Origin: Raillietiella orientalis
Lineage: Eukaryota
Assembly (NCBI GenBank): GCA_036172245.1
Contig: JAYWIR010000005.1
Span: 2,294,001 to 2,358,000 of the forward strand
Direction of reading: 5' to 3'
Length of the DNA stretch: 64,000 nucleotides
In this document: positions 25,398-64,000 of the stretch, piece by piece
Numbering within the stretch: position 1 is the first letter of the stretch
How the letters are laid out: each line of letters starts with the position of its first letter
Program-made: the position numbers and the translations under genes
The notes under the pieces: model-generated
What the model saw: only the letters and a program-made list of their open reading frames with translations
Told to the model about the DNA's origin: nothing
Database searches by the model: none

Positions 25398-25468
25398 GCG
25401 TAGAGGTATCTCCATAGTGCCGCACTTGGCAGGTAGCGGATTGCGTAGAGGTATCTCCATAGTGCCGC
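25398..25468. repeat. Perfect 26-bp direct repeat GCGTAGAGGTATCTCCATAGTGCCGC (25398-25423, 25443-25468)
   Basis: Directly visible. The second copy abuts the 5'-truncated start of element A1. Confidence 0.9.
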
Positions 25469-27508
25469 GTTGTGGGCAAAACCCAATGTCCTGGGTTACA
25501 CCAGGGCATTCAGTGGTTACGCCGCTGAGCGCGTGACGGTTCGTGCCGAGGGAGGGCTAGCCCACAGACTGCAGGTCGGGGAGGAGATCGACCTGTGGTA
25601 TGTGGGGAAACCCGTTTACTGCGGCTTTTGCCAGGTGTCGGGGCACCTGAAGAAAAAGTGCCCCAACATCGTGTGCTCGGGCTGCGGAGGAAAGGGGCAC
25701 ATCAGACGGATGTGCCCCAACAGCAAAAGGACGTCCCGGTAGGCAAAAGGAAAGAAGAGACGCCTAGGGAAGAAGACAAGGGCCAGGAAATGGCCGAATC
25801 CCGCCCGGCCAACCAACCCGATACTCAGCCATCCTCCAGCGCAGAACCTGCTGGAGAGAACGCCGAGAACGTGGAAGGTTGGCAAAAGGTAGGGAACAAA
25901 AAGCCCCAGAATAAGGAGGCAAAAAAGATAAACAAGGCGGCGCCGAAAAAGCAGAAACCGGTCGTCCGCGCTTGTACGGTGAAAATCGAACGCGTCTCGA
26001 TCGCCAGAGCTGTAAAGAAAGTAACGGTAAAGGCGATCGATACCGTCGATCCTGAGCCGGTCGTGCCCGCAGTGACGTCACCATCAGCTTACGACAATGC
26101 CGTTCCGGCATTGCCAGCGAAGGACGTCTGCGCGCCGATCGATGAAGCCGCTTCCATTGCGCCTGCACCGACTGTCAGTGCGGAAAGCGAGGAGGCGGCG
26201 CGTATAACGGACGCGACCTTCGCGCAGGCCGCGGAAGAGCTGGCAGCCATGTTACGGCAGCCTGCCAATGCCGAGAAAAAGGCCTTGAGACGACCGGCAA
26301 CGGTGAAGGGCCCGGAAAATTCCGAGTCCGAAACCGAAGCCGGTTGTTCTACTTCCGCAGCCGTGCCGAAGAGGAAGGCTGGCAAGAAAACCGGTTGCCC
26401 GAGATGTGTCGCCCCTCCGCAGGTGGAGGAGGCCATGTCGTCGGGCACGGAGGAGGAGGCAATGTGCGTCGCGCCACGCGACCCCTCTCCGATCCGTGTC
26501 TCGGAAGCCATCCCGATGGATGTCGCTGTGGAAGACGTGCTCCCGTGTGAGCAGCCGACCGTCGTCACGCCCGCCAACGAGCCGCCTCCCGCAAGGGAGG
26601 AGGCCGCCTCCACCCCACAATAAACACACCAATGCGTGGGCTCGCCTCCTGCCGCCGCTTGCGCATCATCTGTTGCAACGTCAACGGGTTGCGCGACGAC
26701 GGTAAGAGGCGAGACGTAGCCGCCATACTGCGAGACTTCGACCTGGTGCTCCTGCAAGAGACGCACGTTCTCAAAGCAGAAGTCCAGGAAATCGAAAGAA
26801 TCGCGGGAGGGCGGCTACTGTGGAGGAACGGAAACGACCGCTCCTGCGGAGTTACCTTTATGCTTAAGCCAGCCGTCGACAACGCATTGCGCAGCGTGAG
26901 GTTCGACGAGGAAGGTCGAGTTGGGCAGCTTGCGTTCAAGTGGTCCGACACGATCGACCTCATAGTCACGAACCTGTACCCTCCGGTGTGCAACCACAGG
27001 GCCGAGGAACGCACTGCGTTCTTCGAATCCCTGCGGCGAGACTCGTTGGCTGAAGAAAGCGTACGACGGGCGCACCCCATTGCGGGCGAATTCAATCTCC
27101 GCCTGCTGGCAGGTGCGCCGTGCATTCGAGCACGACTGGTCAACGAGTTGTGCGCAGCCATCAATGCGCGCAATTTCTTGGGCGGTGATGCCGGGAGAGA
27201 TCGGAACATCGACCACGTTCCTCGACAACCACCTGTGCACGCGGGTGGGAACTCGAGGAACGCTCCCGGCACAGCTGTCCGACCATCCACGGCTGGTGCT
27301 CGAGATACATCCACGTGGCAAGGGCCCTCCCCTGAAAACGTGGCGCCTGCCAGGGGACTGGTTGCGCCTCGCAGGAGCGGCGGAACATCTACGCGCCTTC
27401 CTGCGAGGAATCCATCTTGAGACGCTCGTGGACTGGGACGAAATGAAGTGCTCAGTCCGCGAGTTTTGCGACCAGTTTCCCCTGGAACGTCTTCCGCCGG
27501 GCTTCGGC
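25466..27508 (+). mobile_element. Tx1-like LINE A1: 5'-truncated ORF1 plus APE endonuclease, cut at GFG
   Basis: Two CCHC knuckles (CGFCQVSGHLKKKC, CSGCGGKGHIRRMC). ORF1 stop at 26623. ORF2 from 26632 with CNVNG, LQETH, NLYPP, SDH. Homology ends at LPPGFG. Confidence 0.92.
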
Positions 27509-30507
27509 GTTATCACCCGGGTAGGCCCGGGGCGTTTATTTGTAAACTCTACATGCGTGGTACGAGGCCCCACCACGGCCGTAAACACAGAACCTGTCGG
27601 GACACCGGGACGCAGCCCGGCGTGGCACTCCCCAAGAGCGAAGGAAGAAGGAAATAAGACAAAAATAAAAATAAAAAAAGAAACAAACAAAAAGAAGTTG
27701 GAAGGCAGGGAAGGGATCACTGGTCGCTGTGGGGAGGGCCCATCCGTCGAACGAAGCCCTCGAAGTCTGTCTGCATATTCCCTAGTTGGGGCCATCCGGC
27801 AGCTCTCCGCAAGAAACGTTGGGCATACGGGATGACATCCTTCGCCTGTGAACCCACTCCTTCGTTGTTGGCGTCGCTCCATGCCGCCACGATGCCACGG
27901 ACGCAGCACAAGGCTGCGATGGCTGCGGCTGGCTGCAGTGCGTCCTTCACGAAGAGGGGCCGAAGAACGTCTCTGGGGGTGCTGCCCGTAGGGAGACCGA
28001 GGGTCGTCCCGAACCGTTCCCAAAGGGGACGAAGGGCAGCACAGTCCACAATAAGGTGGGAGAGCGATTCCCTCTCTCCGCACCTGACACACGCAGGATC
28101 CACAACTCCTCTTGTCCACTGGGAGCGCCGTGCGTTGCAGGGTAAACCCCAATGCAACAACAGCAACGCCGACTCTTTCCACTTAAGGGGCAGGATCCTG
28201 GATTCCTGAAGAAGCGGGGGCCACTTCAGCACATCCATAGGGATGGCCAGCAGCTCGCCCCATCTTCTTAGTCCTCGCGGCTGGACGCTCGGTGTCGTGG
28301 CGTCGGCTAGTTCTCCTGTTGTCCAGCCGCTGATCAACTTTTCGCGTCCCTCGATGCAGCAGGAGACTTGCCACCTTGGCGTCCGACTGCTGTAAAGCGC
28401 CCTCCTCAGGAAGGGCAGCGCCGTAGCCAGGCAGGTTGTCTCTGCCCACGTGCTTCTAGCTGGATTCTCCAGGAGATTCCTGAGTGCAGCGGGCGTAGGG
28501 GCTGCATCGGGGACGATTCCACGTTAAATGGCTTTTCTGATTCACCACTGCCCACGTTCCGATGTTCTCCTCGAGCCAGGCGGAGGAGGTGGCGGGGCAG
28601 CAAACCATCCAGCTGTTCTCCATGGCCAACGATGCCATGCGCCCGAGCTGTAGGCCGCATCTTCTGATCTTCCGGCCGGGGCACAGAAGAAAAGACGCGA
28701 GTCCCTCGCACCGGGACACACGACTGGCGAGCAGGCGAGCCGGAATGCACCACGGGGTGCTCCACATCTTCGCTGCGATGGCGAGGGTACGCATTGGCAG
28801 CTGTTTCTCCAAAGGCTCCAGCGTCAGGAGGCTAAGTCCGCCGTCCCGACGAGGAGCGCAAAGGTCCTTCAAAGGGAATCGGGGCGTCCCCTTGCCCCAA
28901 AGGGCGATGCGGAGGAGGTCCTTCGTCCTCTTTTTCACAACTCCTGGGGCGAAGCAAACAAAAAGCAGGGGGCGGAGGAGAGGAGTCGCGAGCGTGTTCC
29001 AAACCGCGGTCCGTTCAGGCAGGAAAAACCTGCCGCCTCGGAACGGGCCGATCGCCGTCTCTACTTTTTGGAGGCAGCTGGACCACGCTTCCGCAGTGGA
29101 GTAGTCCCCCAACGTCACACCAAGGTACTTGAAGTACCTCACCGTGGGAATCCCCAAACGGACCCAGTCCTGCTGCCCTGCCCACGCCGCACCAACTGGC
29201 ATCACGGACGACTTCGCCCTGTTCACCGTAAGTCCGGTCCCGCGGTTGAGCAGGTCGAAGAAATCTCCTACCGCCTTCGCCGGGGTGGACATAGGTAAAT
29301 GGAGCAGAAGTTCGTCGGCATAAACACTTACGGCGGGCGTGTCGGGCCACGAGCTCGGCAAGGGGGCCAAAGTCACCCTGTACGCTCTCAGTACCAACTC
29401 AAAGTAGATGCTAAAGAGCAGGGGGCTGAGGCTATCTCCCTGCCGTATGCCCAGCCCCACCGGCACGCCGTACACCTGTTGGCTGGAAAAGCAGATGTTA
29501 AGGATGGCGTTGCGCCAGCAGGAGCGCAGGAAGGAGAGAAGGGCGGGTGGGAAGCCCATGCGACCCAAGAGCTACCAGAGGAGTTCCTGGTCTACACAGT
29601 CGAACGCCTTATGGAGATCGACTGCGAGCGCTAGAGCCCCCTTCCCAGCCCGGCTGGCGGCCCTAATGTGGGGTTGCCGACTTTCCTTATCCCTTTCTTT
29701 TCTCTTCTGTGCAGGTGCACCCATGTGCTTGCGAAGAAGAGGTTGGCATCCATACTTCGCTTGGGAACAGCATAAGTCTGGTCCGGGCTAATGACGGATT
29801 CTGCCACCTGCCCAGACGCGAAGCCCATGGCCCTGCTATTAATCCTGCATCCGTATTCACGACCGTGATCGGACGCCAGTTCTGTGAATTTCTGAGGTCT
29901 CCCCCTTTCGGAAGGAGCCTCACGCTGTCTGAGCGAAACAAGGCGGGAACATCGCCTTCGTCTCGGTTCAGCCTTATCAACTTAAGCAACAGGGTTGCAA
30001 GCTCTTCCGCGAAGCTCTGAAAGAACTCCGCGGGCAATCCGTCTTCCCCTGGAGCTTTACGCCTCTTGAACCTTTTGATACCGGCGAGAACGTCGCCGGT
30101 GGTAAAAGGGTCGTCGAGGCTCTCCATCTCCTCCTCCTCTATTGCCGAAGCGCCATCCGGAAGCAAGCGCCGAGAGGCGTGTCGATCCGGGTGCTCCCTG
30201 GCGGAAAGGGAGGAAGAAAAACTCCGCACAAGATGCCGTACCGACGCCGTGGACGAACATTCGCGGCTCTGGTCGTCCAGCAAGCTGGCCAACCCGGATT
30301 GCCAGGCTTGGCGTTCGGTCCCGGCGCGGTACTCGGCCAGACGAGGGACATTAGGTGTTCTCTCGTACCTACGGGCCTGTAAGTAGGCCCGATGGTTGCA
30401 AGTACCCTCGCCGAATCCGATGGGCAGGCGGTCCAGGGGGAACTGCTCGCAGAACTCCCGGACCGAGGCCTTGAGAAGCTCTAGATCCGAGAGACTCTGG
30501 AGCGTCG
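27509..30507 (-). mobile_element. Tx1-like LINE B1: 3' part (linker, RT, C-terminal Cys motif, 3' UTR)
   Basis: WRPITVVN, GIRQGDSLSPLLF, YADE, FKYLGV, CVRCGERESLSHLIVDC. Stop at 27717. AATAAA-hairpin terminus at 27509-27540. Confidence 0.93.
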
Positions 30508-33138
30508 ATCAGACGTGTCTTTGCGTTGCTCGTGAGTTTCATTTCCGTTGGTGCTTGTGCGTGTTGTGGGTGGAGGATTAGGCAGCAATGCCTGATACCA
30601 CCACCGGTGTGGATCCGGGGGCGATGACCTCATTGCCTCCGGAGGAGATGGAGGTGAGGGTTCCCGCATCAGTGGTGCCTCCCGCCAGCACGGATGCGCC
30701 CCCGGCCCTACGCAGGGCTTGGAAAGCCGTAGCTGCGGCACCTACGTTAGCGGCTATGGCGGAAATGCGCGCTTACCTGTAGGAGGGGTATAGCCCATCA
30801 CTTCTATATAAGGTAGGCGGTCTATATTCTCCCGAGAACACGCGCGCCTTCTCGCAGGCGATGCGCGTTCTCGGTGTACAAAAAGAGGAGCTTCTGGCTA
30901 TGTCCGTCAGAAGCGGGGGTCAATTTGTGGAAGTTATCTGCAGGGAGGCAACTCTTGCGCAGAGACTTCTGCGAACCCCCGTAATTATGGGCAGTCGGAG
31001 GCTTCTCCCAATTACTGAAGACCGGTCGGTGATCATTCACCTGACCGGTATCACGTTCCGGATGACGAAGGAGGCCGTCCGGAACGAATTAGAAAAATTC
31101 ACAACTGTCCACGCGCTGTGAGGTAAGCCTACTCCTATTGTTGATTACGACGGGGTGCTTGGCGGCCTGGATGCAGCGCGAATGACGGTTCGCGAAGGAT
31201 GTGAGTGTCCCCACAAACTCACCGTCAACGGTGAATCCGTTGACGTGTGGTACGCTGGGAAACCCAAGTTTTGCGGCTGCTGCAGCAGCTTTGGTCACCT
31301 TAAAATGAGGTGTCAAAGCGTGCAGTGCCAGCAATGCAAACAAGCGAGGCATACCCGTCTGGTATGCCCCCAAAACACAGTCCGCGTCGTGTCCGCAAAA
31401 AACGCGAGAAAGCGCGCGGCTAAAAAGAGAAAGAAGCTGGCAGCTCGTGCTGCTGCTAAGGAGGTCACCTCCTCCACCAAGGCGAAGGCCAGCCCCGAGA
31501 CCTTGGCGAAAAACGCCGAAAAGGTCGAGGGTGAGGGTCAAGAGCCAGGGTCAAGAGCCAGGGTCAAGAGCCAGGGTGGCAGAAGGTCGACCCCAAGAAA
31601 AACTCCCCTAAGAAGGGAAAGAACGTGGCGAAACGGAGCAAAAGCGCTTGGCGCCGCGAAAAAACCAAAAGCTGCTGCGTCGTCGTAGATCGGATTCCCG
31701 GCATCGACAAATGCGGCGCTAAAGAACTCGCTGCTGCCCCTGCTCAACCTTCCGTTGACAAAGTCAACAAGGAGGGCAGCGAGGCGGCGGCGTCTGTCAT
31801 CGAGCCCACGCTCGATGACGTCGCCTTCGAGCGCGCCGCGGAGGAACTGGCTGCCTCGTTGCAGCCGGCCGCCCCCAAGGCTGGCAAGAAGGCCGTCAGG
31901 CGTCCGGCTTCCCCTCAGGAGTCGGCCACTTCCGACCCCGAGGTGAAGGCCGGAAACACAGCATCCATCTCCTCGGCACCCCGCAAAAAGGCAGGACGAA
32001 AGTCCACAATGCCCCGGAAGATCGTCTCCCCCGACGAAGGGGAAGAGATGGCTTCCGGCTGCGAGGGTGCGATGAGCGTGGGAAACTCCCGGGACCCGTC
32101 GCCCGATCGAATCCCCCGCGCGGACACGGAGGAGATGGAGGGGGTGGAGGCCGAACAGGTGCCTTTGGTGCCTGAAGAGGCCTCCGTCCCCATGGACATC
32201 CCGAACACCTGCCCCGCGGTAGGTGGTGCAACGCCACCTTTCCAGCAATAAAGCCGGGAATCGCCTCCCGTCGTCGTCTGCTGATCGCCTGCTGGAACGT
32301 CAACGGGCTAAGCAACGACGGCAAGAGGCGTGACGTGGCCGCCACCCTGGCATCCTTCGACCTGGTGCTGCTGCAGGAGATCCACGTGATCTCCGCAGAT
32401 CAAGCCGTGGAGATCGAACGGATCTCGGGTGCTCGGCTGCTGTGGCGCTGCGGTACCGCGAAATCTAGCGGTGTTGCCTTCCTGCTCTGACCAGCCATCG
32501 AGTCCGCAATAAAGGACGTACGGTTTGATGACGCCGGTCGCGTCGTTCAGCTGACTCTCAGCTGGTACGACTCAATCGACCTGGTCGTCTCCAACCTGTA
32601 CGCTCCTATCGGTAAGGACGCGTTGAGGGCGAAGGCAAGAAGAGAATTCTACCTTGCCCTCGGATGCGATTGGCTGATCGAAGCAAGTGTTCGCAAAGCG
32701 CACCTGATCGCAGGTGACTTCAACCTGCGCCTGCTTTCAGGTGCGCCGGATACACTGAACGACCGCGTCAACGAATTTTGCGCGCAAATGCACACGTGCA
32801 ACTTGCTGGCCGGAGATACGGACATGGAAAGGAGCATCGATCACGTGTACCTTGACCAGAACCTATGCTCCCGCGTGGGCAGGCGCCGCAAGTTACCGTC
32901 CGAGCTGTCGGACCATGGCCGAATCGTGTTCGTAGTGCATCCGCGCGACAAGGGTCCCCCCTCGTCAGCGTGGCGTCTGCCAGGGGACTGGCTCAAGTTC
33001 CCGGACGCGGCGGAACATCTCCGCGCGTTCATACGGAACTTCAGGATGGGGACGCTTCAGGACTGGGACCGCTTCAAGCGGTCGGTCCAGGAGTTCTGCG
33101 ACCGGTTCCCTTTGCATCGCCTACCTGCGGGATTTGGG
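30508..33138 (+). mobile_element. Tx1-like LINE A2: 5' end, ORF1 (30588-32251, disrupted), APE, cut at GFG
   Basis: GACGTG 5' motif at 30512, CCHC knuckles, WNVNG/LQEIH/GDFN/IDHV/SDH. Ends LPAGFG. A 13-bp triplication at 31534-31577 shifts the ORF1 frame. Confidence 0.92.
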
Positions 33139-36100
33139 GTTGCCACCCGGGTACGCCCGGAACGTTTAATTTCAAAAACTCTACAAAACGTGGTACGAGG
33201 CCCCACTAACGGCCACACAACACACGACCTGCCTGGACGCCGGGACGCAGCCCGGCGTGACGCTCCTCGGCAGTGGAAGGGGATAGGGATGAAAACAAAA
33301 AGAAAAATAAAGATATGAAAAGAAAAACAAAAAGAGTTTGGAGGGAGAGGAAGGGATCACAATCCACTGGGAAGAGGGCCCATGCTTCGCAGGATGCCCT
33401 CCAGGTCCATCTTCATGCTTCCCAGATGGGGCCATCTCGCAGCTCTCCGCATGAAGCAGACCGCATACGGGATGACATCCCTCGCGTTGGCATCCACTCC
33501 TTCGTCGCGAATGTCGCTCCAGGCCGCCACGATGCACCGGATGCAGCAGAGGCCTGCGAGGCCGGCGGAGGGCTGCAGGTCGTCCCGCACGAAGAGGGGC
33601 CGAAGAACGTCTCTGGGCGCGCTGCCCATTGGGAGCTCGAGTGTCGTCCCGAACCGTTCCCACAGGGGTCGGAGGGCAGCACAGTCAACAAGTAAGTGGG
33701 GTAGCAATTCCCGCTCCCCACACCTGGCACACTCAGGCCTTACACTTTCCAGCGTACAGTGGAAGCGGCGCGCGTTGCAGGGTAGACCACAGTGCAAGAG
33801 CAGCAGCGCCGACTCTTGCAACTTCAGGGGGAGAAGCCTGGATCCGATTAATATTGGGGGCCACTTCAGGTCATCCGTCGGGATGCCGAGCAGCTCGCCC
33901 CAGCGAAGAAGTGAACGCGGGAGGCCACTCGGGGACGTGGCATCTGCCAGTTCTCCCATGGTCCAACCGCTCACCTTCTTTTCCTTGCCTGCGATTCGGC
34001 AGAAGACTTGCATCCTTGGCTTGCGGCCACTGGTTAAAACCCTTCGTAGGAAGGGCAGGGTCGTGGCTGGAGGGGTAGTCTCCGCCCACGTGCTCCAGGC
34101 AGGACACTCCAGAGTAGTCTGCAGTGTGAAGCAGGCGTTGGGGCGAATCGCAGGCGGTTCCATTCCGGAAAAGTCTGGAGGTTCAGCTTGGCACACGTCG
34201 CAACGGATTACTCCAGCCAGGCGGAGGAGTTGAAGGGGCTGCATACCGTTTAGCCGTTGTCTCTCAACAGGGCTTCCATGCGCCCAAGGAGAAGGCCGCA
34301 TCTTCTGACCTTCCTGCCAGAGCACAGAAGGTACGACGCGAGTCCTTGCGTCCTGGACGCACGGCTGGCGAGGATGCGGTCCGGAACGCCCTAAGGGGTG
34401 CTCCATGACTTTGCTGCGATGGCGAGGGTGCGCTATCGTAGCTGTATGTCCAGGCGCTCCAGCGTCAGGAGGCCGAGACCGCCGTCCAAACGAGGAGCGC
34501 ATAAGTCATCTAGAGGCACACGTGGCCTCCCGCTGCCCCAGAGAACGATGCGGAGTAGGTCCTTGGTCCTCTTTTTAATGTCACGGGGGACGGGGCAAAC
34601 AAAAAGCAGGGGGCGGAGGATGGGAGCCGCGAACGCGTTCCACACCGCGGCGCGTCCCGGCAGAAGGAACTTGCCTTCCAGGAACGGGCCGATTGCCAAC
34701 TCTACCTTTTGAGACAACCTGACCAGGCTTCTGAGAGTCAGAATTCCCCCAACGGGTCACCCAGGTACTTGAGGTACCTCACCGTGGATATCCCCAAACG
34801 GACCCAGTCCTGCTGCCCTGCCCACGCCGCACCAACTGGCATCACGGACGACTTCTCCCTGTTCACCGTAAGTCCGGTTCCCCGATGCAGCAGGTCCAAG
34901 AACTCCTCGACCACCGAAGCCGGGGTGAACATAGGAAGCATCAGCAGAAGGTCGTCCGCGTACGCTAAAACGGCCGGCGTACTTGCACAGTCGTGCGGCA
35001 GGTGCGCCAGAGTTCCCCTTTACGCTCTCAGTACAGACTCTAAGTAGGCACTGAAGAACAAGAGGCTCAGGCTGTCTCCCTGCCGGTTCCCACGCCGCAC
35101 CGGCACGCCTTGCACCGTCTGCTCGCTGAGAGAAACGTTGATGAGCGCGTCGCGCCAGCAGGAGCACAGATAGGCCACTGATGAGGCCGGAAAGCCCAAG
35201 CGTTCCAGAAGCTCCAGAAGGAGATTCTGGTCGACGCAAACGAATGCTTTCCGCAAGTCCATTGCGACCGCAAGGGCTCCCTTCCCCACCCGACCATCCA
35301 ATCCCTTGCCGGCGCACGCACCGGAATTCCGGCTGCGCATTAAGCTCCTTCCATGTTGGTGCTCTAGCCAGGTGAATGCGTGGAACAGGTTCGCCTCCAT
35401 GCTTCGCCCGGGAAGAGCATATGTCTTTTCCGGGCTAATGAAGATGTTGGCAACCCGTCCCAGACGCTCAGCCCAAACCTAAGCTATCAACTTGGCATCC
35501 GCATTCACTATTGTGATGGGACACCAGTTGTTCATGCTCCTCAGATCTCCTCCCTTAGGGAGGAGCCGCAGCTTTGTCAAACGAAACGAGGCGGGAACGT
35601 CACCTTTTTCGCATATCAGCAAGGTGAGTTGCTCTACCAGGGGGGTAAGCTTGGCCGCTAAAGTTTGGTGAAACTCCGCGGGCAGGCCGTCCTCCCCTGG
35701 AGCCGAGCGCCTCTTGAACTTTCCGATGGCCGAGAGAATCTCGTCCATCGTGAAAGGCTCGTCGAGGGTGTTTCTCTCCTCCTCTCCGATCTCTGGAGCG
35801 CCTTCGGGAAGCAGGAGTCGTAATACCTTCCTCTCCGGAGGTGCCCTGGCATACAGGGAGGAGTAGGAACTCCGCAGTAGGCCGCGATTTTTGGCGGTTG
35901 ACGAGTGCTCCTGGCCTTGATCGTCCAGGAAGCTGGCCGATGCGGACTCCCAGGCTTGCCTCTCGGCTCCCGCTTTGTATTCCGCCAGCCTGCGGCTGCC
36001 GGGGGTCCTGGCGTAACGACGGGCCTGAAGGTAAACTCGTTCGTTACGGACTACGGTTTTAGAACACGTAAGTAGGCGGTGAAGAGGGAACGGGTCGCAG

Positions 36101-38153: not shown

Positions 38154-38295
38154 TTTTCCCCAAGTCCCACGAGGGGTGGAGTAAATTTATTTTTCTGAAA
38201 TTTTTCTATAAAAACATTCACACTACAATCTCATCCAGAGCATTACCACTTTTTTTTACCACTATGAAGTCCTTGGGTTCGCACAAGTTCTGCAC

Positions 38296-41802: not shown

Positions 41803-41815
41803 AAAAGGGGAAGAC

Positions 41816-46365: not shown

Positions 46366-46374
46366 GCCTCCTCC

Positions 46375-53605: not shown

Positions 53606-54351
53606 ATCTCTTCCGCTTGTTCTGCAGGGATCAAGTGGATCTCCTGCAGTAGCGCAAGATCGAAGAATTCCAGAAGGGCGGCCATGTCTTCTCTCCTGCC
53701 GGCGTCTATCATGCCGTTCACGTTGCAAACGGCGATGCTCGAACGACGGCGGGAGGAGATTTCCGGCATTACTGCTGGAAAAACAAAGATGTGGGGGAGC
53801 CCACCTCTTGCGAGGCGTGCGGGATGTCCATCGGGGTTTTGGCCTTCTCAGGCACCTGAGGCACCTGTTCGGCCTCCACTCCCTCCATCCCCTACGAGTC
53901 TGAGCGTGAGGGTCTCTCAAGCAAATGGTCCCGCGAGTTTCCCACGCGCATGGCACCTTCGCTTCAGGAAGCCATCTCTTCCCCTTCGAAGGAGAGACGA
54001 CCTTTCTCGGCATTGTGGACTTACGTCCCGCCGTTTTGCGGGGTGTCGTGGAAACGGAGGCTGCGCTTCGGGCCTCCTCCTTAGGGTTCGAAGTGGAGGA
54101 CTCCTGAGGGGAGGCCGGACGCATTACGGCCTTCTCGTTTGCCTTAAAAGGTTCTGGCTGCAAAGAGGCAGCCAGCTCCTTCGCCACACGCGCGAAGGCT
54201 ACGTCATCGATGGTGGTGTCGATGACGGACGCCACCGCCGGCTCGCTTCACTCGCTGTTGACTGAGTGAACAGAGGTGAGGTCGACTGTAGCGGCGAGTT
54301 CTTTCTGGCAGCGTTCGGCAACATCGGGAACGCGTTCGACGACGACGCTGC
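53606..54351 (-). mobile_element. Tx1-like segment C: ORF1 C-terminus and APE start (probable upstream half of B2)
   Basis: DDVAFARVAKELAASLQ matches the A2-type ORF1. TAATG at 53771-53767. Ends at LQEIH..AEEI, where B2 begins. Confidence 0.88.
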
Positions 54352-56210
54352 ACAAACGTGTTCTGTGTTGCTCCTCGAGTGCGATTGCTTTCCGTCTTCT
54401 TGCGTGTGGTGTGCCCGAGTGCGTCCACTAGGATGTCCACGGAGCCCCTGCAGCAAAAGAAGGATGTGGAGGCTGCTATTGGAAGTGGAGACTCTACTCC
54501 AGATGTCCGGTCCGCCTCTGATTCTTGTGTCTCGCCACCGGGGAGAAGCTTCGCCTCCGTCGTCAAGGCGGCGGCAGCCAACGGAGCACCGCCCGACAAA
54601 GCGGAGCTACAGGCATATGCAGCCCATAGCTACAAGCCTGCGCTCTGCTATCCGGTGAGTGCTGCGATCTCCGACAGGGTCGGAGAAAATTTATGGGACG
54701 AGCTTTTGCTCGTCGGGGTCCGACAGGACGATCTCCTGGCAGTCATGCCGGTTAACGCGCTCGGACACTGGGAGGTGCACTGCAAAGAGTCATCCCTAGT
54801 CCAGCGCTTTTTCCGCACCCCGCTAAGCATACGCGGGAAGGAGGTCGTCCCGTCGGCCATGGACCAGTCGTTCGTGGTCGGATTGTCCGCCGTTCAGGTG
54901 GACACGCCCGATCGCGTGCACGTCGGTGCACTTAGTGCATTCGATGCTTTCCCAGACGGGAAAGATGCCACGTCGCCCTGGGGGCTAATCGCTTCCTTCG
55001 ACGCAGCCCAACAGTGCGGGCACGCACTCAATGAATGCTGCTGAACCGTCCAAGTGCGCGTCCAGCGGAACACACGGGAAACCGTGCGCGGGCACCCTTG
55101 GAGCTGCCTCTGAACGGCAGTCTGCTCCTACGGTGGCGAAGAGCACGTCTTCCACGTTGAAGGCACGAGCAGCGAAGGCTGAAATAGCATTTCGCGGGAC
55201 GACGGCAATGACCGCCGTTTCGGCCGCATCGGCGAAATAGAGGGTGCAGTGCGTAGCGGGGACGGAGCCGTCTTCCGTCCCGAGCGCGAAACCTGAGCCG
55301 CAATGTCCTGCCAAACAATTGAGGGAGGCGTCGGCCTACCAGAAGGGAACCCCCGACGCGGGCTCGACTCGCGTTTCCAGGACGCCCACAAAGGGGAAGA
55401 AGAAGGTTGACCCTTCAATATTACCCATCCTTAAGGTGGGTGGGAGGCAAAAGAGAAGCACGCCGAAGAAGGTGCGTACCCAGGTACGCACTACGGCTGC
55501 GTGCTCTGTCTCTGTCGCTTCGCGTCAGAAGGCGGCTGCGGAAGCCAAAGCTCCGGAAACTGCGTTGGCGACTGCGACGACCCCCGCGCGGGCAGGGCAA
55601 GCCTCCACCTGCCGAAACAAAAAGAGACATGCAAAAAGCCAGTCTCGAGCCAGGCATTCAGACTCCGAGTTGGAGTCCGAGTGCAAACAAATGGAGCGCG
55701 CATCCCGGGGTAAGCCAGTAGCGCGCCGGGCTAAAGTGCGGAAGCACGAGTCTGTTGCCGGAGGCGATCTCGACTCCTGCACGGAGACCAAGGCGATGAT
55801 CCTCGGCTTCCAGGACTCAGCTGGGCTTGATGTGGTGGCGAACGGGAGCGATTCCGCTTCCCAATACGCTCTCCTACCAGCTGACTTTTCGCTTGACGGG
55901 CGAGGAGCACGCCGTCAGGTCCGCAGCAGTGACGCGTGGACTCGCGTCCGCTCGTCGCGTCAGCGTGGCCTGTTGGAATTTCAACGTGCTACGTGATGCT
56001 GACAAAAGGCGGACGGTATCCAACGCTTTGCGCGCGTTCGATCTGGTGCTGCTGCAGGAGATTAATTGCATCTCCGAACGGCAGGCATCGGATCTGGAAG
56101 AGTGCGCGGGCGGAACGCTACACTGGCGGCAAGTCTCTGCGCACACGTGCGGAGTCGCGTTCCTCGTCCGAGGCAGGGTGGCGGAGGCGGTGCGGAACGT
56201 TTGTTTCGAC
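54352..56210 (+). mobile_element. Tx1-like LINE J: 5' end, internally deleted ORF1 (ATG 54433), APE start
   Basis: AACGTG..GTTGCTCC motif, LVQRFFRTPL, ACWNFN, LLQEI. Cut at VCFD. Confidence 0.87.
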
Positions 56211-56820
56211 GTTTTCACCCGGTGAAGCCAAGGAGTTTAATCGAAAACTAACAGAATTTGCGGTACAAGGCCCCGCTGCGGCCAATAGTTCTATGGAGAT
56301 GTCTGGTGGTCAGTGCACAGACCGACATAACACTCCACGTCAACGGATGGGGTTAGTTAGAAAAGAAAAATAAAAAAAAAAAAAAGTAGAAATACTGGTT
56401 ATTGGGAGGGCCGGGAAGGGATCACAGTCTGTTTTGTGGAGCTTCCATCCTTTGCAGGATGCCGACGAGGTCTTTCTGCAGATTTACCAGGTGGCGCCAT
56501 TGGCATGCTATTCCCAGAAAGCGAGCTGCATACTCCACGGCATTCCTTCTGTTAGCATCCTCTGCTTCGTCGGATCCACTCCAAGGTGCCACAATACCGC
56601 GTACGCAGCAGAGAGCTGCTATAACAGCGGCTGGCTGCAGGGCGTCCCGCACGAAGAGGAGCCGAAAAACGTCTCTGGGAAGACTACCTTCCAGGATCCC
56701 TAAGGTGAAACCGTAACGTTCCCACAGGGGCCGGAGGGCAGCACACTCAACCAGAAGCTGCGGGAGGGTTTCCCGCTGCCCGTACCGCGCACAGTTTGCG
56801 TTCACACTTCTCCGTGTCGT
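56211..56820 (-). mobile_element. Tx1-like LINE G: ORF2 C-terminus and 3' UTR
   Basis: LVECAALRPLWERYG..ALCCVRGIV. Stop at 56422. Terminus ATTAAA..CCGGGTGAAAAC. Confidence 0.88.
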
Positions 56821-59481
56821 TCTAGGGAGCGGACGTGGTTTGGCATCGCTCCACAGACTGGTTAGTGGGAAGCTTTTCGTTGGTTGTCTGGTGTGTGGGA
56901 GCACCAGTGTCCCATGGCAGAAATGCCTAAGGACACCGCGATGGAAGTTGGAGGAGGAGAAGCGACACGCTCTCCTCCACCAATAGAAGTGGGGGCATCC
57001 GCCCCCACGGAATCCGGGGCACTTGCCCCATCGGAATCGGGGGCAACCGCCCCTTCGCGACCTTCTTCGCCATTGGCGAGGAGTTGGAGTGACGTCTTTG
57101 CTGCACCATCCCCGGATGCAGTAGCGGAGCAGACTGCCTACAAGAACAGCGGCTACAAGCCGTCTCTGATCTATAAGGTAGGCAGTGTGTTTGATGAAAT
57201 AATTGCACGCCCCTTCGAAATGGAGCTGCAAAGGTTGAACGTGAGGGAGGAAGACCTTTTGGGCCTATCCATCCTTAGTGGGGCCAGCGAGTTGAGCTGA
57301 CATGCAAAGAGGCATGTCTGGCGCAGCGACTGCTGAACACCCCTATTACGGTGGACGGCCGCAGGATCTTCCCTGTGACGGAGGACCGCTCCGTCGTGGT
57401 CCACCTCACAGGTGTATCACTCCGAATGGACAAAACCAGCGTCCATGAGGAGTTGTCGAAGCATAGTAGTGTGCACGCGTATTGGGCCAAACCTAATGTC
57501 TTCCGAACGTACGGAAGGATATTCATTGGGATGGCCGCCTCCCGCGTCACCCTACCAGAGAATGGTGGGCTTCCCCACAAACTGAATATCGGCGAAGAAA
57601 AAGTCGATGTTTGGTACGTGGGTAAGCCCAAGTATTGTGGCCATTGCGATGCTACAGGGCATCTAAAAAAGCGGTGCCCTAACATCCAATGCCACTTATG
57701 TGGAAATAAGGGCCACATCCGTAAGGTGTGCCCAAGAAGAGAAATCCCGCCCCCATCCGCTGCAAAAAAGGCAAAGGGGAAACGCACGGGAGAGACGCAT
57801 AAACAGAAACAGGCTGTAAACACCCAGATGCCAGTCCCTAAGCCCTCACAGCAAACGTCGGTTGAGAACACTCCCGACGACGCTGGTGACGGCGAAGGCT
57901 GGCAGACGGTACAGCCACGAAGAAAACCCGGGAGTCCCGAACGAAACGCGGTGAAAACAAAAACGCAGCGCGAAAAACCGTGCCGCGAAAAGCTCCGCGC
58001 GTGTTCGGTAAAATTAGAACGTGTGGAGGCACCCGATGCCGCCGCCGGGGGAGCAATCCCCCCCCTCGCGTCCGCCGAAGCCGCGACGGTCGATGGTGAA
58101 CCCTCTGGCGAAACAGAGGGGGAACCGCGCGCCGCGCTCGACGCGATCGAGGAGGCCGCCTTCCAGCAGGCGGTGGAAGAACTCACGGCTGAACTGCATG
58201 GCCGTGAAAAGAACTCGCGAAAAGGCTTGCGAAGGCCGGCCGCGAGGAAGGCTCCGGAGGCAGGTGAGGCCGATCCGGACGTCGAAAGTGCGTCCTCTTC
58301 AGCGGAGGCGCCACCAAAGAAGACGGGACGTAAGTCTCAGAATCCCAGGAGGCGCATGCGGATCAATAAGGAGGCGGATGAATCGGCCCCCGAGGGGGAA
58401 GCCGGCAGCGTGGGAGGCGAGGTTGGGAATCTCTCATTTCCCGACACCGTGCAGCTGGCGACCCCCATGGAGGAGGAAGTACAGGTGGGTGAACCCCTAC
58501 TTCCACTGCAAGGCCCCGACGACGAATCGTCCTCCATGGAGGAGGGAGAAGCGGTGCGCGACGCACCCCCTCCTCCTAGCGTCCCGCCCGACAAGGTGGC
58601 GGGAGCCCCATTGCCAATTTCCCAGGATTAACACCTGGACTCGCCTGTCGCCGTAGGATACGCGTAGCCTGCTGGAACGTCAACGGGCTCCGCGATGACG
58701 GCAACAGGCGAGACATGGCCGACACCCTGCGTGACTTCGACCTGGCACTCCACGTGATCACCGCGGAGAACGCACAGGAGATCGAAAGGATCGCAGAGGG
58801 TCGTCTATTTTGGCAATGAGGCGCTCGCAACACCTGTGGCGTCGCGTATTTTATGAAGCCAGCAGTCGCTTCCTTCGTCAAGGACGTGCGATTCGACAAG
58901 GACAGTCGGGTTGGCCAGCTTATCCTTAGATGGTCCGACTCTATCGACCTTGTCGTGACTAATGTGTACGCTCCGAGCGGAGGACGCGGGTACGGGGAAC
59001 GTTCCCGGTTCCTCGAAACCCTCAAGCGCGACTGGCTGGCGGATACAAACGTACGCAAGGCACATCTGATCGGTGGGGATTTCAACATCCGCCTGCTCTC
59101 AGGTGTGCCTTGCAGGCAAAAAGACGCAACCAACGAGTTGTGCACCGCTATGCGTACGCGCAACTTGCTGGGAGACCTACCGGAAATAGCCCAAAGCGTA
59201 GACCACGTCTTCCTTGATGCCGACCTGTGCCCAGAGGTCGGCAGACCAGGGAAACTTCCGTCGACAGTATGGGACCACCTCCAGTTCATAATCGAAATTA
59301 TGCCACGCGACAAAGGACCACCATCAAGGGCGTGGCGTATGCCAGGGGACTGGACGCGCATCTCCGTCAGTTCCTAAGAGGCAACATCCTCTGCAACCTC
59401 GAAGATTGGGACCGCATGAAGGTCTCGGTCCGTGAGTTCTGCGAGGATTTCCCTTTGCACCTCCTGCCCCGGGGATTTGGA
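56821..59481 (+). mobile_element. Tx1-like LINE H: 5' end, ORF1 (56914-58631), APE, cut at GFG
   Basis: GACGTG at 56832. CGHCDATGHLKKRC and CHLCGNKGHIRKVC. APE motifs. Ends LPRGFG. Confidence 0.92.
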
Positions 59482-62400
59482 GTTGCAAACCGGGTACGCC
59501 CGGAGCGCTTATTAATAAAAAACTCTACAATCGCGGTACCAGGCCCCGCTCACGGCCTTATGCACAAGACCTACCGAGACGCCGGGACGCAGCCCGACGT
59601 GGCACTCCCCGGCAGCGAAAGGGGATGGGGAAAAACAGAAGGAAAAATAAAAACGCAAACAAACAAAAGCGGTTGGAGGGCAGCGAAGGGATCACTGTTC
59701 GCTGAGAGGAAAACCCAACCGTTGAAGGAAGCCCTCAAGGTCCATGCGTATGTTCCCCAGTTGGGGCCATCCAGCAGCTCTCCGCAAGAAGCGTCGGGCA
59801 TGGGAGGTGGGCCCATCCTTCGCAGGATTCCCTTCAGGTCCATCTTCATGCTTCCCAGATGGGGCCATCTCGCAGCTCTCCGCATGAAGCAGACCGCATA
59901 CGGGATGACATTCCTCGCCTGTGGACCCACTTTTTCGTTGTTGGCGTCGCTCCATGCCGCCACGATGCGACGGACGCAGCACAAGGCTGCGAGGGCTGCG
60001 GCGGGCTGCAAGGCGTCCCGCACGAAGAGGGGCCGAAGAACGTCTCTGGGCGCGCTGCCCATTGGGAGCCCGAGGGTCGTCCCGAACCGTTCCCACAGGG
60101 GTCGGAGGGCAGCACAGTCAACAAGTAAGTGGGGAAGCAATTCCCGCTCCCCACACCTGGCACACTCAGGCCTTACACTTCCCAGCGTACAGTGGAAGCG
60201 GCGCGCGTTGCAGGGTAGACCCCAGTGCAACAGTAGCAGCGCCGAATCTTGCCACTTAAGGGGGAGAAGCCTGGATCCGATTAATATTGGGGGCCACTTC
60301 AGGTCATCCGTCGGGATGCCGAGCAGCTCGCCCCATCTACGAAGTCCACGAGGGAGGGCACTCGGGGTTGTGGCATCTGCCAGTTCTCCCATGGTGCAAC
60401 CGCTTATCTTCTTTTCCTTGCCTGCGATTCTGCAGGAGACTTGCCACTTTGGCTTGCGGCCGCTGGTTAAAGCCCTTCGTAGGAAGGGCAGGGTCGAAGC
60501 TAGGGGGGTAGTCTCCGCCCACGTGCTCCTGGCGGGACACTCCAGAGTAGTCCGCAGTGTGCAGCAGGCGTTGGGGCCGAATCGCAGGCGGTACCAGTCC
60601 GGGGAAGTATGAAGGTTCAGCTTCGCCCACGTCGCAACGGATTCCTCAGGCCAGGCGGAGGAGTTGGCGGGGCTGCATACCGTCCAGCCGTTGTCTCTCA
60701 CCAGGGCTTCCATGCGCCCAAGGAGAAGGCCGCATCTTCTGACCTTCCTGCCAGAGCACAGAAGGTACGACGCGAGTCCTTGCGTCCTGGACACACGGCT
60801 GGCGAGGATGCGGGCCGGAACGCACCAAGGGGTGCTCCATGACTTTGCTGCGATGGCGAGGGTGCACCATCGTAGCTGTATGTCCAGGCGATCCAGAGTC
60901 AGGAGGCCGAAACCGCCGTCCCGACGAGGAGGGAGTAAGTCATCTAGAGGCACACGTGGCCTCCCGCTGCCCCAGAGGGCGATGCGGAGAAGGTCCTTGG
61001 TCCTCTTTTTAATGTCACGGGGGACGGGGCAAACAAAAAGCAGGGGGCTGAGGATGGGAGCCGCGAACGCGTTCCACACCGCGGCCCGTTCCGGCAGAAG
61101 GAACTTGCCTTCCAGGAACGGGCCGATTGCCAACTCTACCTTCTGGAGACGACCTGACCAGGTTTCTGCGAGGCAGAAGTCCCCCAACAAGACACCCAGG
61201 TACTTCAGGTACCTCGCCGTGGGGATCCCCAAGCGGATCCAGTCAGGCCGTCCGACCCACGTCGCACCCACCGGTACGACCGACGACTTCGCCTTGTTTA
61301 CCCGAAGTCCAGTCCCACGACTTAGAAGGTCGAAGAAATCGGCGACTGCGGCTGCCGGTGCGGACATGGGTAACATGAGCAAAAGGTCGTCGGCGTATGC
61401 TGCTACGGCGGGCGTGCCGGGGCACGAGCTGGGCAGGGCAGCCATAGTCACCCTGTACGCTCTCATCACCAAATCAAAGTAGGTGCTAAAGAGCAGGGGA
61501 CTAAGGCTATCGCCCTGCCGTATGCCCCGCCGCACCGGCACGCCGTACACCCGTTGGCTGGGAAAGCAGATGTTAAGAATGGCATTGCGCCAGCAGGTGC
61601 GCAGGAAGGAGAGAAGGGAGGGTGGGAAGCCCATGCGACCCAGGAGCTCCAACAGTAGCTCCTGGTCAACGCAGTCGAACGCCTTATGGAGATCGACCGC
61701 GATCGCGAGGGCCCCTTTTTAGCCCGGGTGTCCATTCCCAGCCCAGCTGGCGTCCCCAAAATGGGGTTGCCAATCTTTCCTCCAGTTTCATTTAGGCAGC
61801 GCTGCACATGGAACCATGTGCTAGCGAAGAACAGGTTGGCATCCATAGTTCGCACGGGAACAGCGTATGTCTGCTCCGGGCTAATTATGGATTCTGCCAC
61901 CTGTCCTAGACGCGAAGCCCACAGTCCAGTGACCAGCTTGGCGTCCGTATTCACAATTGTGATCGGACGCCAGTTGTCTAAAGATCTCAGGTCTCCTCCC
62001 TTCGGGAGAAGCCTCACACGGGCTGATCGAAACGAGGCGGGAACGTCGCCTTCGTCTCGGATCAGCCCGGTCAACTGGAGCACAAGAGAGGCCAGCTCTG
62101 TCGCGAAGCATTGAAAAAATTCCGCAGGCAGGCCGTCCTGCCCTGGCGCCTGACGTCTCTTGAGCCTTTTAATACCGGCGAGAATTTCACCGGTAGAAAA
62201 AGGCTCGTCGAGGCTGATGCTCTCCTCCTCCCCTATTGCCTGGCCTCCGTCCGGAAGCAGGAGCCTCGAGGCGTCCCGCTCTGGGAATGCCCAAGCGTAG
62301 AGGGAGGAATAATAGTGTTGCACGAGGTGCCTGATCGCGGGTGGGGAAGATCGCTCTCGGCCCTGGTCGTCCATCAAGCTGGCCTACCCGGATTGCCATT

Positions 62401-64000
62401 GTTGGCGCTCGGCCCCGGCTCGATATTCGGCCAGCTGACGGACATTGGGGGTCCTCTCGTACAGGTGGTATTGTAAATAGGCCCTATGGTTCCGAGCACC
62501 CTTTCCAAATCCGGGGGGCAGGCGGTGCAGGGGGAACTCCTCGCAGAACTCGCGGACCGAGGCCTTGAAGAGGTCCCAGTCTTTGAGACTGCGGAGGGTG
62601 ACGCCTCTCAGGAATTCGCGAAGGTGTTCTTTCGCACCTGAGAGCCGCATCCAGTCTTCAGGCAATCGCCACGCCCTAACCGGTGGTCCTTTATCGCGCG
62701 GGCATATCTCGGCGATTAACCTGGAATGGTCCGACAGCGTCGACGCAACTTTTCCTGGTTTGCGGACCCGCGAGCACAGGTCGACATCCAGAAAGAAGTG
62801 GTCGATGCTGCGGTCCTTTCCCTCCGCGTGCTCCAACAAGTTGCGCGTGCGCATGGCAGCGCAAAACACGTTGGCCGTTCGTTCTTGTGCTTCGGGCTCA
62901 CCTGACAGCAGACGGAGATTAAAGTCCCCAGCTATCAGGTGTGCCTTCCGCACGTTCGTATCGGCCAGCCAGTCGCGCTTCAGGGTTTCCAGCAGCCTGG
63001 TACGGTCGCTGTATCCCCCTTTTCCGCAAGGGGCGTACACGTTCGTGACGATCAGTTCGATCGAGTCGTACCAGCTGAGAATCAGCTGACCGACCCGACC
63101 GTCGTCATCGAAGCGTACGCCCTTCACGGCAGCGTCGATGGCCGGCTTCACGAAAAACGCGACTCCACAGGTGTTGCGGGCGCCGCATCGCCAATACAGT
63201 CGACCCCCCCGCGATCGTCTCGATCTCCTGGACGTCTGCCGAGGTTATCACGTGGATCTCCTGCAGCAGGGCCAGGTCGAACTCACGCAGGGTGTCGGCC
63301 GTATCGTCTGTTCCTGTCGTCGCGCAGCCCGTTGACGTTCCAACTGGCCACGCGTATTCGACGGCGACAGGCGAGCACAGGTTTTATTCCTGGGAAATCA
63401 ACTCTGCGGCGGGACGCTAGTTAGGGCAGGAGGGACAGGTGCCTCGAGCACCTGGTCCCCCTGCTCCATCGGTGACGAAGCGTCGGGCGGGTCACCCTCC
63501 GGTGGGTACGCGCCTACCTGTTGGCCCTCCTATATACGGGTGGGCTGTACAGGGTCCGCGCCGGCAGGGAGGACTTCGCCCCCCTGCTCACCCTCCTCCA
63601 TGGGGGTGGCCTGCTCGACGACTTCCGCGCGTGGGATTTCCCCCTCCGGGATTCCCACGCTGCCGTCAGCTTCCTACTTCTCCTCCTCGCTCGTGGAGAG
63701 GAGGCGCCTCCTCGGCTTTTGGGACTTGCGTCCCGACTTCCGGGGGGGTACCTCCGACGAGGAAAATGCACTTCCGGCCCCCAGGCCGCACTCACCTGCG
63801 GGCCTTCTTCGGCGGAGCCGGCCTTCGCACGGCCCTGCGTGAGGGGTTCTCACGCTCGGCCAGCGTGGCCGCGAGCTCCTCCTCCGCCTGCGCGAACGCC
63901 GCGTCCTCGCTTTCGGCGCGCGCTTCGCGCGGCTCACCCTCTGTGCAAACAGAGGGTTCGTCGTCGCGAACCTCGGGCGCGGCGGAAACGGCGAGGGGAG
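59482..64000 (-). mobile_element. Tx1-like LINE K: ORF1 C-terminus, complete ORF2 (63384-59692, few lesions), 3' UTR; runs off the window
   Basis: APE, intact GFGKG linker, RT with YADD inside the longest open frame in the track (693 aa), C-terminal Cys motif, family 3' terminus at 59482. Confidence 0.94.

Follow-up and report, generated by a model that had tools for sequence, protein, structure and literature searches.

The window analyzed here is a stretch of 64,000 nucleotides from Raillietiella orientalis (contig JAYWIR010000005.1, positions 2,294,001 to 2,358,000 of the forward strand). From position 25467 to the edge at 64000 it was found to consist throughout of a mosaic of APE-type LINE elements, in 16 pieces on alternating strands (Table 1), as mapped by sensitive blastn and by tblastn with ORF1, APE and RT pieces from copies H and K as queries. 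An earlier sequence-only reading had described this block as 38 kb of a single Tx1-like family; the tiling upheld the LINE mosaic but not the single family, since piece D belongs to a second one, with about 25% amino acid identity to the main family (tblastn) and its own ORF1 with zinc knuckles, APE and RT. The copies of the main family form sublineages and were 65–85% identical to each other in self-comparison. The antisense self-nesting of LINEs, the core of that reading, was confirmed in 25467-64000.

Table 1. Pieces and sites of the LINE mosaic (positions within the window; x, hot site in ORF2; aa, amino acid).
Feature	Positions	Strand	Content and borders	Method
A1	25467..27508	+	Outermost copy, 5'-truncated at ORF1 aa ~67; ends at x in ORF2; left flank is non-family DNA	tblastn, junction alignment
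B1	27509..30511	-	Exact 3' end adjoins A1 at x; reaches APE aa ~212, there cut by the A2 5' end	tblastn, alignment
A2	30512..33138	+	Full 5' end (GACGTG at 30512) to x	Junction alignment
Hot-site sequence in A2	33129-33138	+	GGGATTTGG+1	
B2	33139..36802	-	3' part of host copy B2/I; 3' end adjoins A2 at x	
Target-duplication copy in B2	36780-36802			
A3	36803..38185	+	Left part of copy AE: full 5' end and ORF1; divergent lower-GC lineage	
D	38186..44390	-	Different LINE family, complete-looking, nested in A3 ORF1; borders approximate	
A3, continued	44391..45193	+	ORF1 end to APE aa ~205; break-to-break junction with L	
L	45194..46361	-	5' end and ORF1 aa 1-253; 5' end 22 nt from C' on the same strand, the one same-sense junction	
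C'	46384..48788	-	Middle of a copy, RT aa ~537 down to 8 nt beyond x; F 5' end adjoins	
F	48789..51401	+	Full 5' end, ORF1, APE to aa ~222; 84% identical to K; break-to-break junction with E	
E	51402..53605	+	Right part of copy AE: RT aa ~9 to 3' end, which adjoins I; divergent lower-GC lineage	
I	53606..54354	-	5' part of host B2/I: APE start back to ORF1 aa ~238	
Second target-duplication copy, in I	53606-53624			
J	54355..56210	+	5' end (AACGTG) to APE aa ~46, where the G' 3' end adjoins	
G'	56211..56831	-	3' UTR and last ~130 codons of ORF2; cut by the H 5' end	
H	56832..59481	+	Full 5' end, 450-aa ORF1, APE running to x	
Hot-site sequence in H	59472-59481	+	GGGATTTGG+1	
K	59482..64000	-	Innermost, least decayed; 3' end at x of H; passes through RT and APE into ORF1, then beyond the window edge	
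Empty hot site in K	62499..62513	-	CGGATTTGGA^AAGGG; equivalent nick position after 62504	

The domain content identifies the main family as an APE-type non-LTR retrotransposon, with APE and RT in ORF2 and a nucleic-acid-binding motif in ORF1. Pfam detected RVT_1 in K (E 1.2e-14) and Exo_endo_phos in F (E 1.7e-6) and K (3.7e-5, just under the cut-off). Two CX2CX4HX4C knuckles are visible in the ORF1 of H, where the Pfam zf-CCHC match was weak (E 0.008, below the cut-off). Sequence matches in the PDB were to R2 and LINE-1 ORF2 proteins and to exonuclease III, and those in the protein atlas to RVT_1 and zf-RVT clusters only; taken together, these describe a generic LINE, for which the Tx1 clade proposed earlier is a putative placement. 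Terminal direct repeats, i.e., LTRs, were absent from the self-comparison of the window. The 3' ends are constant across copies, and A1 and G' are truncated or cut.

The element ends could be defined by aligning the copies. The 5' motif, GACGTG(T)TTT..GCTCC, lies on the plus strand at 30512 (A2), 36803 (A3), 48789 (F), 56832 (H) and about 54355 (J, as AACGTG), and on the minus strand at 46361 (L), where it reads GACGCA. The 3' ends consist of AATAAA, a 5-bp GC hairpin and ..AAC, without an A-run, and are located on the minus strand at 27509 (B1), 33139 (B2), 56211 (G') and 59482 (K), and on the plus strand at 53605 (E); covariation analysis of the five hairpin pairs gave no compensatory change. 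That element ends adjoin internal breaks of opposite-strand copies at almost all junctions, as had been claimed, was borne out in the window for all five family 3' ends and for five of the six full-length 5' ends, the sixth being L, which adjoins C' on the same strand. Full-length 5' borders make up 6 of the 8 that are visible.

The orientation count was revised. Because a single insertion has A3 at one end and E at the other, the insertion events seen directly number ten, nine of them antisense (one-sided binomial 11/1024); the 10 of 11 reported previously is reached only by adding an inferred insertion of C' into A3/E. The same-sense case had also been misplaced: it is not E in F, E being the 3' part of the A3 copy, but L in C'. 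A further same-sense join, of an L-like 5' end to APE, was present in a contig of the sequencing run X1, from elsewhere than the window. The near-strict antisense rule proposed earlier would draw on about ten events at a single locus, four of them at one hot site, and the orientation of these four is fixed because the hot site is itself strand-specific. Moreover, the joins at 45193/45194 and 51401/51402 are break-to-break and therefore need deletions; together with the same-sense L/C' junction they need extra events, which count against the self-nesting model.

Junction alignment placed three 3' junctions (27508/9, 33138/9 and 59481/2) at an identical host nucleotide, hot site x, after GGATTTGG+1, about 0.84 kb into ORF2 and ~65 codons beyond the SDH motif of the endonuclease domain. 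K retains an intact version of it, and the F 5' end adjoins C' 8 nt past the site, a fourth insertion there. All five 3' ends adjoin the sense strand of the host in the endonuclease-coding part of ORF2, at about +120, +240, +840, +840 and +840 nt from the WNVNG motif, so that two of the five (G' in J and E in I) lie off the hot site. By contrast, the 5' junctions are scattered (ORF1 aa ~238, APE aa ~10, ~212 and ~254, RT aa ~506); if the unseen 3' junctions were at the hot site, the model would have to allow for extensive duplication or deletion of the target. No clear motif was common to the three distinct nick sites, and the hot-site motif with up to three mismatches was no commoner elsewhere than in shuffled sequence.

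The 330-nt stretch following the junction travels with the minus-strand copy and represents the 3' UTR of the insert, because it is also present in G', where it adjoins another position of the host. In the tree the three hosts, A1, A2 and H, do not form a single clade: H groups with F and K at 100/100, and forcing the hosts together costs 101 lnL units (p-AU 0.00145). Therefore, the junction was formed repeatedly and was not copied as a composite, which sustains the earlier reading of the pieces as true nested insertions and speaks against a duplicated unit. Homology-driven integration was also considered and rejected: local scores of the reverse complement of the 3' UTR against the sense sequence after the hot site were 16–22, with a shuffle mean of ~19. 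Insertions at the same nucleotide in a fixed orientation, as in a sequence-specific LINE, were thus observed. The confinement of nearly all copies to the target with a constant target alteration was not: the target changes differ (~19-nt duplication with A3/E vs 8 nt lost with F in C'), two of the 3' junctions are at other positions, and A1, the founder, sits in DNA from outside the family.

One level of nesting is closed within the window. B2 and I are halves of a single minus-strand copy, breaking at the same host position and flanking a plus-strand insertion of 16.8 kb (A3...E), with a target-site duplication of ~19 nt on both sides (14/19 identical, a match that only 5 in 200000 random registers attained). 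Long branches and lower GC are common to A3 and E. B2 had been read before as part of one copy with piece C; that it is one copy split by an insertion held, and its second half is piece I. B2 is also a mosaic, 89–96% identical to K from 33366 to 34710 and 61–69% in the remainder, and because of this the trees of these copies can mislead. For D in A3, a search for the target duplication gave no shared 8-mer at the presumed borders.

The chain A1>B1>A2>B2/I>J>G'>H>K, eight levels deep as first proposed, fits every junction seen, and both halves were found in the window at one of the eight levels, B2/I. For the other seven main-chain levels the closing halves fall outside it and would be expected beyond its right edge, as would the 5' remainder of B2/I; those of A1, B1, A2, J, G' and H are absent. 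K is on the shortest terminal branch of all and has the lowest number of private changes, and it contains the longest stop-to-stop ORF of the window (59571-61718, 715 aa), in line with the prediction for the innermost copy, and at least two frameshifts. K is thus the least decayed copy, as expected of the youngest, but decay across the copies does not follow the predicted age order, whether by stops, frameshifts or private substitutions. Stops plus frame changes per aligned amino acid were 3/585 for A1, 8/1089 for B1, 4/616 for A2, 19/1322 for B2, 5/333 for A3, 15/892 for C', 6/569 for F and 7/629 for E, an approximate tally, since genuine ORF ends are among the stops, and by private substitutions B2 is no younger than A2. 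At the 5' junctions the two partners of a pair come from different lineages, as would be expected for separate insertions.

Relatives were also searched for elsewhere. Among the sequencing runs, one DNA run (X1) shared 9% of the words and no RNA run was listed as sharing any. On positions 44001-64000, 162 X1 contigs fit, of which 119 were only 90–95% alike and the majority had lengths of a few hundred bases; they are paralogues or come from a relative, and cannot confirm the junctions of this locus. The protein search with the RT of K gave four matches to unnamed or distant proteins, one of 65% identity on a 2.9-kb contig, and that with the read-through peptide of the A2 junction gave none, so that no additional copies of the junction came to light by this route. 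In the metagenome scan, the alignment of the ORF2 C-terminus yielded 171 pattern matches and no relatives, and that of the RT two loci with 28-aa matches only, to which tblastn added nothing. The DNA pattern of the 3' hairpin had no matches in viral_contigs or genome_contigs.

Four other explanations were weighed. A real nest with a hot site but no general antisense rule, the off-site orientation being random and same-sense copies lost or hidden, seems rather unlikely to us. Direct repeats would recombine or convert into one chimeric copy under this explanation, and inverted pairs would persist. It draws on the modest orientation count that remains once the four hot-site events are set aside (6 antisense vs 1 sense, 8/128), on the deletions at the two break-to-break junctions, on the same-sense junctions (L/C' and the X1 contig) and on the 1.35-kb K-like tract of B2, which indicates that recombination or conversion is active. 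However, the 3' junctions of G' in J and of E in I also lie on the host sense strand, less than 0.25 kb from the ORF2 start; the off-hot-site 3' junctions are regional and strand-specific and therefore not random, and copies only 65–85% identical are a poor recombination substrate. An origin of the inverted pairs in single events, by twin priming or RT template switching, which would leave a composite chain without closing halves, is improbable. The end geometry does fit the pairs B1+A2, G'+H and C'+F, plus pieces beginning at an exact 5' end and minus pieces at an exact 3' end, with variable inner breaks, and the partners at 3' junctions tend to be close (A2 with B2 at 79/82, H with F and K at 100/100). 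Against it, the pairs at 5' junctions are not from one RNA, B2 and A3 being far apart (A3 end branch 0.54) and B1 closer to K than to A2 in their 117-nt overlap; the H–F distance differs from the K–F distance (27% vs 16% divergence); the 3' end has neither complementarity nor homology to the sequence past the hot site, with scores within those of shuffles; and the closure of B2/I with a duplication is that of an ordinary insertion. A twin-priming 5'-inverted insertion was accordingly rejected, the lineages of B2/A3 and B1/A2 being different and a duplication bounding A3...E.

The collinearity of 26642-30464 with 32261-36112 across the junction (71%) and the identical position of three junctions would suit a composite unit, a plus-strand 5' half with a minus copy, formed once and then amplified as DNA into a segmental duplication or higher-order repeat. 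This is very improbable: the hosts are not monophyletic, copies with an intact site nest among the three of them, the 5' limits of the inserts differ (APE aa ~212; via APE to aa ~10; past the window), and the plus-strand halves are mutually 64–68% identical, as low as any in the family. Least credible of all is an assembly artefact joining same-family repeats wrongly, in spite of the sole DNA run, X1, containing 9% of the words and its contigs being short and 90–95% alike. Divergence of 15–35% separates the pieces flanking each junction, which are no fold-back copies; one junction is found three times, each in another version of the sequence; and a diverged target duplication flanks the 16.8-kb insertion.

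On balance we favor a Russian-doll cluster in which one APE-type LINE family has probably inserted again and again into its own copies by target-primed reverse transcription. The junction sequences, the nucleotide reused by non-monophyletic hosts and the closed doll with its duplication are directly seen. The specificity of the family endonuclease may be the cause: it would nick a resident copy on its coding (sense) strand, in the initial ~0.85 kb of ORF2 and most commonly just after GGATTTGG+1, and the freed 3'-OH would prime cDNA synthesis on the structured 3' end of an incoming RNA ending in ..hairpin..AAC without poly(A). A sense-strand nick primed on the RNA 3' end would therefore set the new copy antisense to its host. 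The second-strand break would be variable, giving the ~19-nt duplication of A3/E in B2/I or the 8-nt loss of F in C'. Repetition of these steps could produce the order A1>B1>A2>B2/I>{A3/E>[D, C'>(L,F)], J>G'>H>K}, with later deletions and gene conversion obscuring the cluster's central part.

Beyond this, we tentatively raise the possibility of a self-homing LINE whose endonuclease recognizes a site on the coding strand of the element's ORF2, immediately after the endonuclease domain, with antisense entry into sister copies as its main integration route, each jump killing the host copy and confining the family to one harmless cluster of kb-scale inverted repeats. If this were true, double-stranded RNA formed by folding of the inverted repeats could supply silencing, or the repeats could label a domain as heterochromatic or centromere-like. 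The safe harbour, the destruction of rival copies and the antisense-RNA source of the earlier reading are hypotheses of the same kind.

The likenesses to known systems are partial. The Zepp and ZeppL LINEs of green algae (Chlorella, Coccomyxa, Chlamydomonas centromeres) are GC-rich elements (61% in Coccomyxa) nested in their own copies, in clusters that reach tens of kb (PMC3446292, PMC8226300), and this nesting is described as giving tandem arrays, mostly of 5'-truncated 3' ends (PMC8226300). Nested self-insertion forming a cluster is found here too, and the differences are that 6/8 visible 5' borders are full-length, that orientation alternates and that one nucleotide is hit repeatedly. Zepp has a poly(A) tail. 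The 3' ends at this locus are without an A-run, and the arrays of truncated ends described for Zepp were not what was found here. Inverted and direct segments of one family side by side also recall the 5' inversions of L1 twin priming, but the paired segments come from different lineages and a separate duplication closes one doll. DIRS-1 of Dictyostelium inserts preferentially into its own copies and forms complex clusters, as here; it is, however, a tyrosine-recombinase retroelement without APE or a target-primed mechanism, and we know of no fixed site or orientation for it. Sequence-specific LINEs include R1 and R2 in 28S rDNA, Tx1L in the Tx1D transposon, and Keno, Mutsu and Utopia in small-RNA genes. 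Independent insertions of the R1, R2 and Tx1L type share the same nucleotide of a repeated target and a fixed orientation and are often full-length. Same-nucleotide, fixed-orientation independent insertions are present here as well, but their target is the coding strand of the family's own ORF2, so that a family member is split every time; other sites close by are used as well, and the founder is in non-family DNA.

In the full-text literature covered, mostly from outside the subscription journals, no description of antisense fixed-site self-insertion by a LINE was found. Clusters of self-nesting LINEs, as with Zepp, and LINEs specific for one site, such as R1, R2 and Tx1L, are already known separately. 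A family with a preference for one fixed nucleotide on the strand that encodes its endonuclease would, if true, unite both ideas, and would offer a natural case of a transposon limiting host harm by consuming its own copies, as well as a model for the growth of inverted-repeat, small-RNA-prone or centromere-like TE islands. The cluster is best placed among self-nesting, site-specific LINEs, as a variant in which insertion, probably target-primed, is into the coding strand of resident copies.

The cluster of lettered LINE pieces (A1 to K) was tiled using four ORF segments from copies H and K as tblastn queries, together with sensitive blastn against six reference slices. From window position 25467 to the end, all stretches matched LINE ORF1, AP-endonuclease (APE) or reverse-transcriptase (RT) parts, and Exo_endo_phos and RVT_1 domains were confirmed with Pfam. 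PDB sequence matches of the cluster proteins were R2 and LINE-1 ORF2 proteins and exonuclease III, and a protein atlas placed the family RT only among generic RVT_1 plus zf-RVT clusters. Two CX2CX4HX4C knuckles were seen by eye in ORF1 of H, where the Pfam match was weak. Pairwise identity among copies was 64-85%, and CpG observed/expected was about 1 in every LINE piece (0.84-1.14), so these pieces carry no sign of methylation-driven CpG loss. The sequence-only reading had described 38 kb of family copies alone; LINE pieces were indeed found throughout, but D belongs to another LINE family. Its ORF1 region, of 559 aa, has zinc knuckles of the CCHC type (Pfam zf-CCHC at E 8e-4, short of the cut-off), and an APE and an RT (RVT_1 E 1.4e-29) are present as well. 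D also contains an 80-nt repeat (43329-43408 and 43431-43510).

Alignment of six candidate 5' regions gave a common start, GACGTG(T)TTT..GCTCC. The family 3' end, about 330 nt downstream of the ORF2 stop, consists of AATAAA, a 5-bp GC hairpin and then ..AAC, without an A-run; covariation was looked for in this hairpin and none was seen.

Element ends, 5' junctions and element D in the window
Feature	Window position	Strand	Remark
D	38186-44390	minus	6.2-kb element of a different LINE family, ~25% aa identity
B1 3' end	27509
B2 3' end	33139
E 3' end	53605
G' 3' end	56211
K 3' end	59482
A2 5' end	30512	plus
A3 5' end	36803	plus
F 5' end	48789	plus
J 5' end	~54355	plus	variant AACGTG
H 5' end	56832	plus
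L 5' end	46361	minus	variant GACGCA
5' junction in host B1			APE aa ~212
5' junction in host B2			APE aa ~10
5' junction in host C'			8 nt past hot site
5' junction in host I			ORF1 aa ~238
5' junction in host G'			RT aa ~506

Each of the five family 3' ends meets a copy of opposite orientation, on that copy's sense strand and within the endonuclease-coding 0.85 kb of host ORF2, at offsets from the WNVNG motif of about +840 nt (three junctions), +240 nt and +120 nt. The three +840 junctions, of B1, B2 and K in hosts A1, A2 and H, share the identical nucleotide (the hot site), after GGATTTGG plus one base, and the unbroken site is present in K (62499-62513). No clear common motif of the three distinct nick sites was found. 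The host sense strand runs up to the site, where the insert's exact 3' end takes over in reverse complement, a geometry that target-primed reverse transcription with a first nick on the host coding strand would yield.

Whether the repeated junction reflects one event or several was judged from the APE-region tree, in which H grouped with F and K (100/100) and A2 with B2 (79/82). Constraining hosts A1, A2 and H together cost 101 log-likelihood units (p-AU 0.00145), which leads us to reject a duplicated composite unit; since these hosts are not one group, copies with an intact site nest among them. On this tree, the hot-site junction arose at least three times. Twin priming was unsupported, as the pieces meeting at 5' junctions belong to different lineages. 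The 330-nt stretch adjoins another host position in G' than in B1, B2 and K, and is therefore the 3' UTR of the minus-strand copy. No homology or complementarity of the 3' end to the hot site, able to replace endonuclease choice, was found. Partners across a 3' junction tend to be mutual nearest relatives in the tree (A2 with B2; H with K/F); either conversion acting on adjacent inverted copies or closely timed insertions may be the source of this.

Five of the six exact 5' ends also adjoin opposite-strand copies, at scattered host positions, and the sixth, L, adjoins C' on the same strand; two further joins are break-to-break (45193/4 and 51401/2). One in six 5' junctions lying as near the hot site as that of F (8 nt) would be expected by chance in only about 2% of cases (an estimate), which points to use of the same target by F. 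Ten family-in-family events were seen directly, nine of them antisense (11/1024, one-sided, our own arithmetic), or 6/7 (8/128) once the four hot-site events are counted as one because the site itself fixes their orientation. The 10/11 previously claimed is reached once C' in A3/E, a placement which we infer, is added. Against the antisense reading, one contig of a DNA sequencing run, X1, whose contigs are mostly 90-95% alike to the window (paralogues or a relative), has a different copy with a same-sense 5' junction.

One nested insertion could be closed within the window. Homology of B2 stops at 36779 (..CGAACGG, minus-strand reading) and that of I starts at 53606; the two points coincide on the host, close to the start of APE. 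Moreover, 36780-36798, beside the A3 5' end, and 53606-53624, beside the E 3' end, match at 14/19 nt, a level attained by 5 of 200000 random registers. From this shared break and flank match, B2 and I are evidently two halves of one minus-strand copy, which upholds the single split copy proposed earlier as B2/C. The plus-strand insertion in it runs from the A3 5' end to the E 3' end, with a target-site duplication of about 19 nt. A3 and E are long-branch pieces in their trees, with a GC of 0.54-0.57 vs about 0.60, which fits one divergent copy. Within it lie D, L, C' and F, which fit the nest if two deletions and one insertion in the same sense are assumed. The full parse is A1 > B1 > A2 > B2/I > { A3/E > [D, C' > (L, F)], J > G' > H > K }; the halves that would close A1, B1, A2, J, G' and H, like the B2/I 5' remainder, are beyond the window, and the searches for relatives gave none with flanks.

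Decay is out of step with this nesting order, which counts against the reading. Stops and frame changes were tallied together over the aligned residues, roughly, as some of the stops are genuine ORF ends; the rate was lower in the outer copies A1 (3/585), B1 (8/1089) and A2 (4/616) and higher in B2 (19/1322), A3 (5/333) and C' (15/892). Private substitutions were near-neutral across codon positions, and by them B2 is no younger than A2. B2 is mosaic: a tract of 1.35 kb (33366-34710) is 89-96% identical to K (59819-61168) and is bordered by 61-69% identity upstream and a 76% 3' UTR. It has the appearance of ectopic conversion or of a mosaic element, and conversion at work weakens the trees and clocks of the copies. 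Shorter high-identity patches link B1 with K and with B2. Additionally, an internal duplication of about 98 nt at the ORF2 end of K (59714-59792 and 59812-59890) abolishes the usual stop, giving a longer ORF; one X1 contig is without it (joint 59797>59896).

GC content forms a sharp mosaic along the window: it is about 60% at 1-4 kb, drops to 38-48% at 6-24 kb (38-40% for 8-16 kb and for 18-22 kb) and is back at about 60% from 26 kb onward, in the LINE cluster. In the AT-richer DNA directly left of the cluster lies a minus-strand remnant of a CRESS-DNA-virus Rep gene (23873-24751), with an ORF matching Pfam Viral_Rep (24353-24751, E 2.2e-10) and, downstream, a minus-strand ORF (23873-24262) with a P-loop-like GNAGKTT seen by eye. 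Beside it, 570 nt left of A1, sits a lone 190-nt minus-strand fragment of the family RT N-terminus (24709-24897; 47% aa to K, 76% nt). A 26-nt exact direct repeat (25398-25423 and 25443-25468, 19-nt spacing) reaches the truncated A1 5' border, and a tandem 47-nt pair of 94% identity lies in the AT-rich flank (19456-19566).

The nested cluster is real as a structure, and a self-homing rule, shown only at one locus, is plausible. No antisense LINE insertion at a fixed site of its own ORF2 was found in the literature searched. R1, R2 and Tx1L target fixed sites in other repeats, whereas the window family has its fixed site in its own ORF2. Zepp/ZeppL clusters are self-nested but have been characterised as arrays composed of 5'-truncated 3' ends (PMC8226300, PMC3446292). 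The window family resembles Zepp/ZeppL in nesting within its own copies and differs in its fixed ORF2 site and antisense insert; self-nesting and fixed-site LINEs were already known separately, and what seems new here, against the literature searched, is a fixed target inside the element's own ORF2, with an antisense insert.
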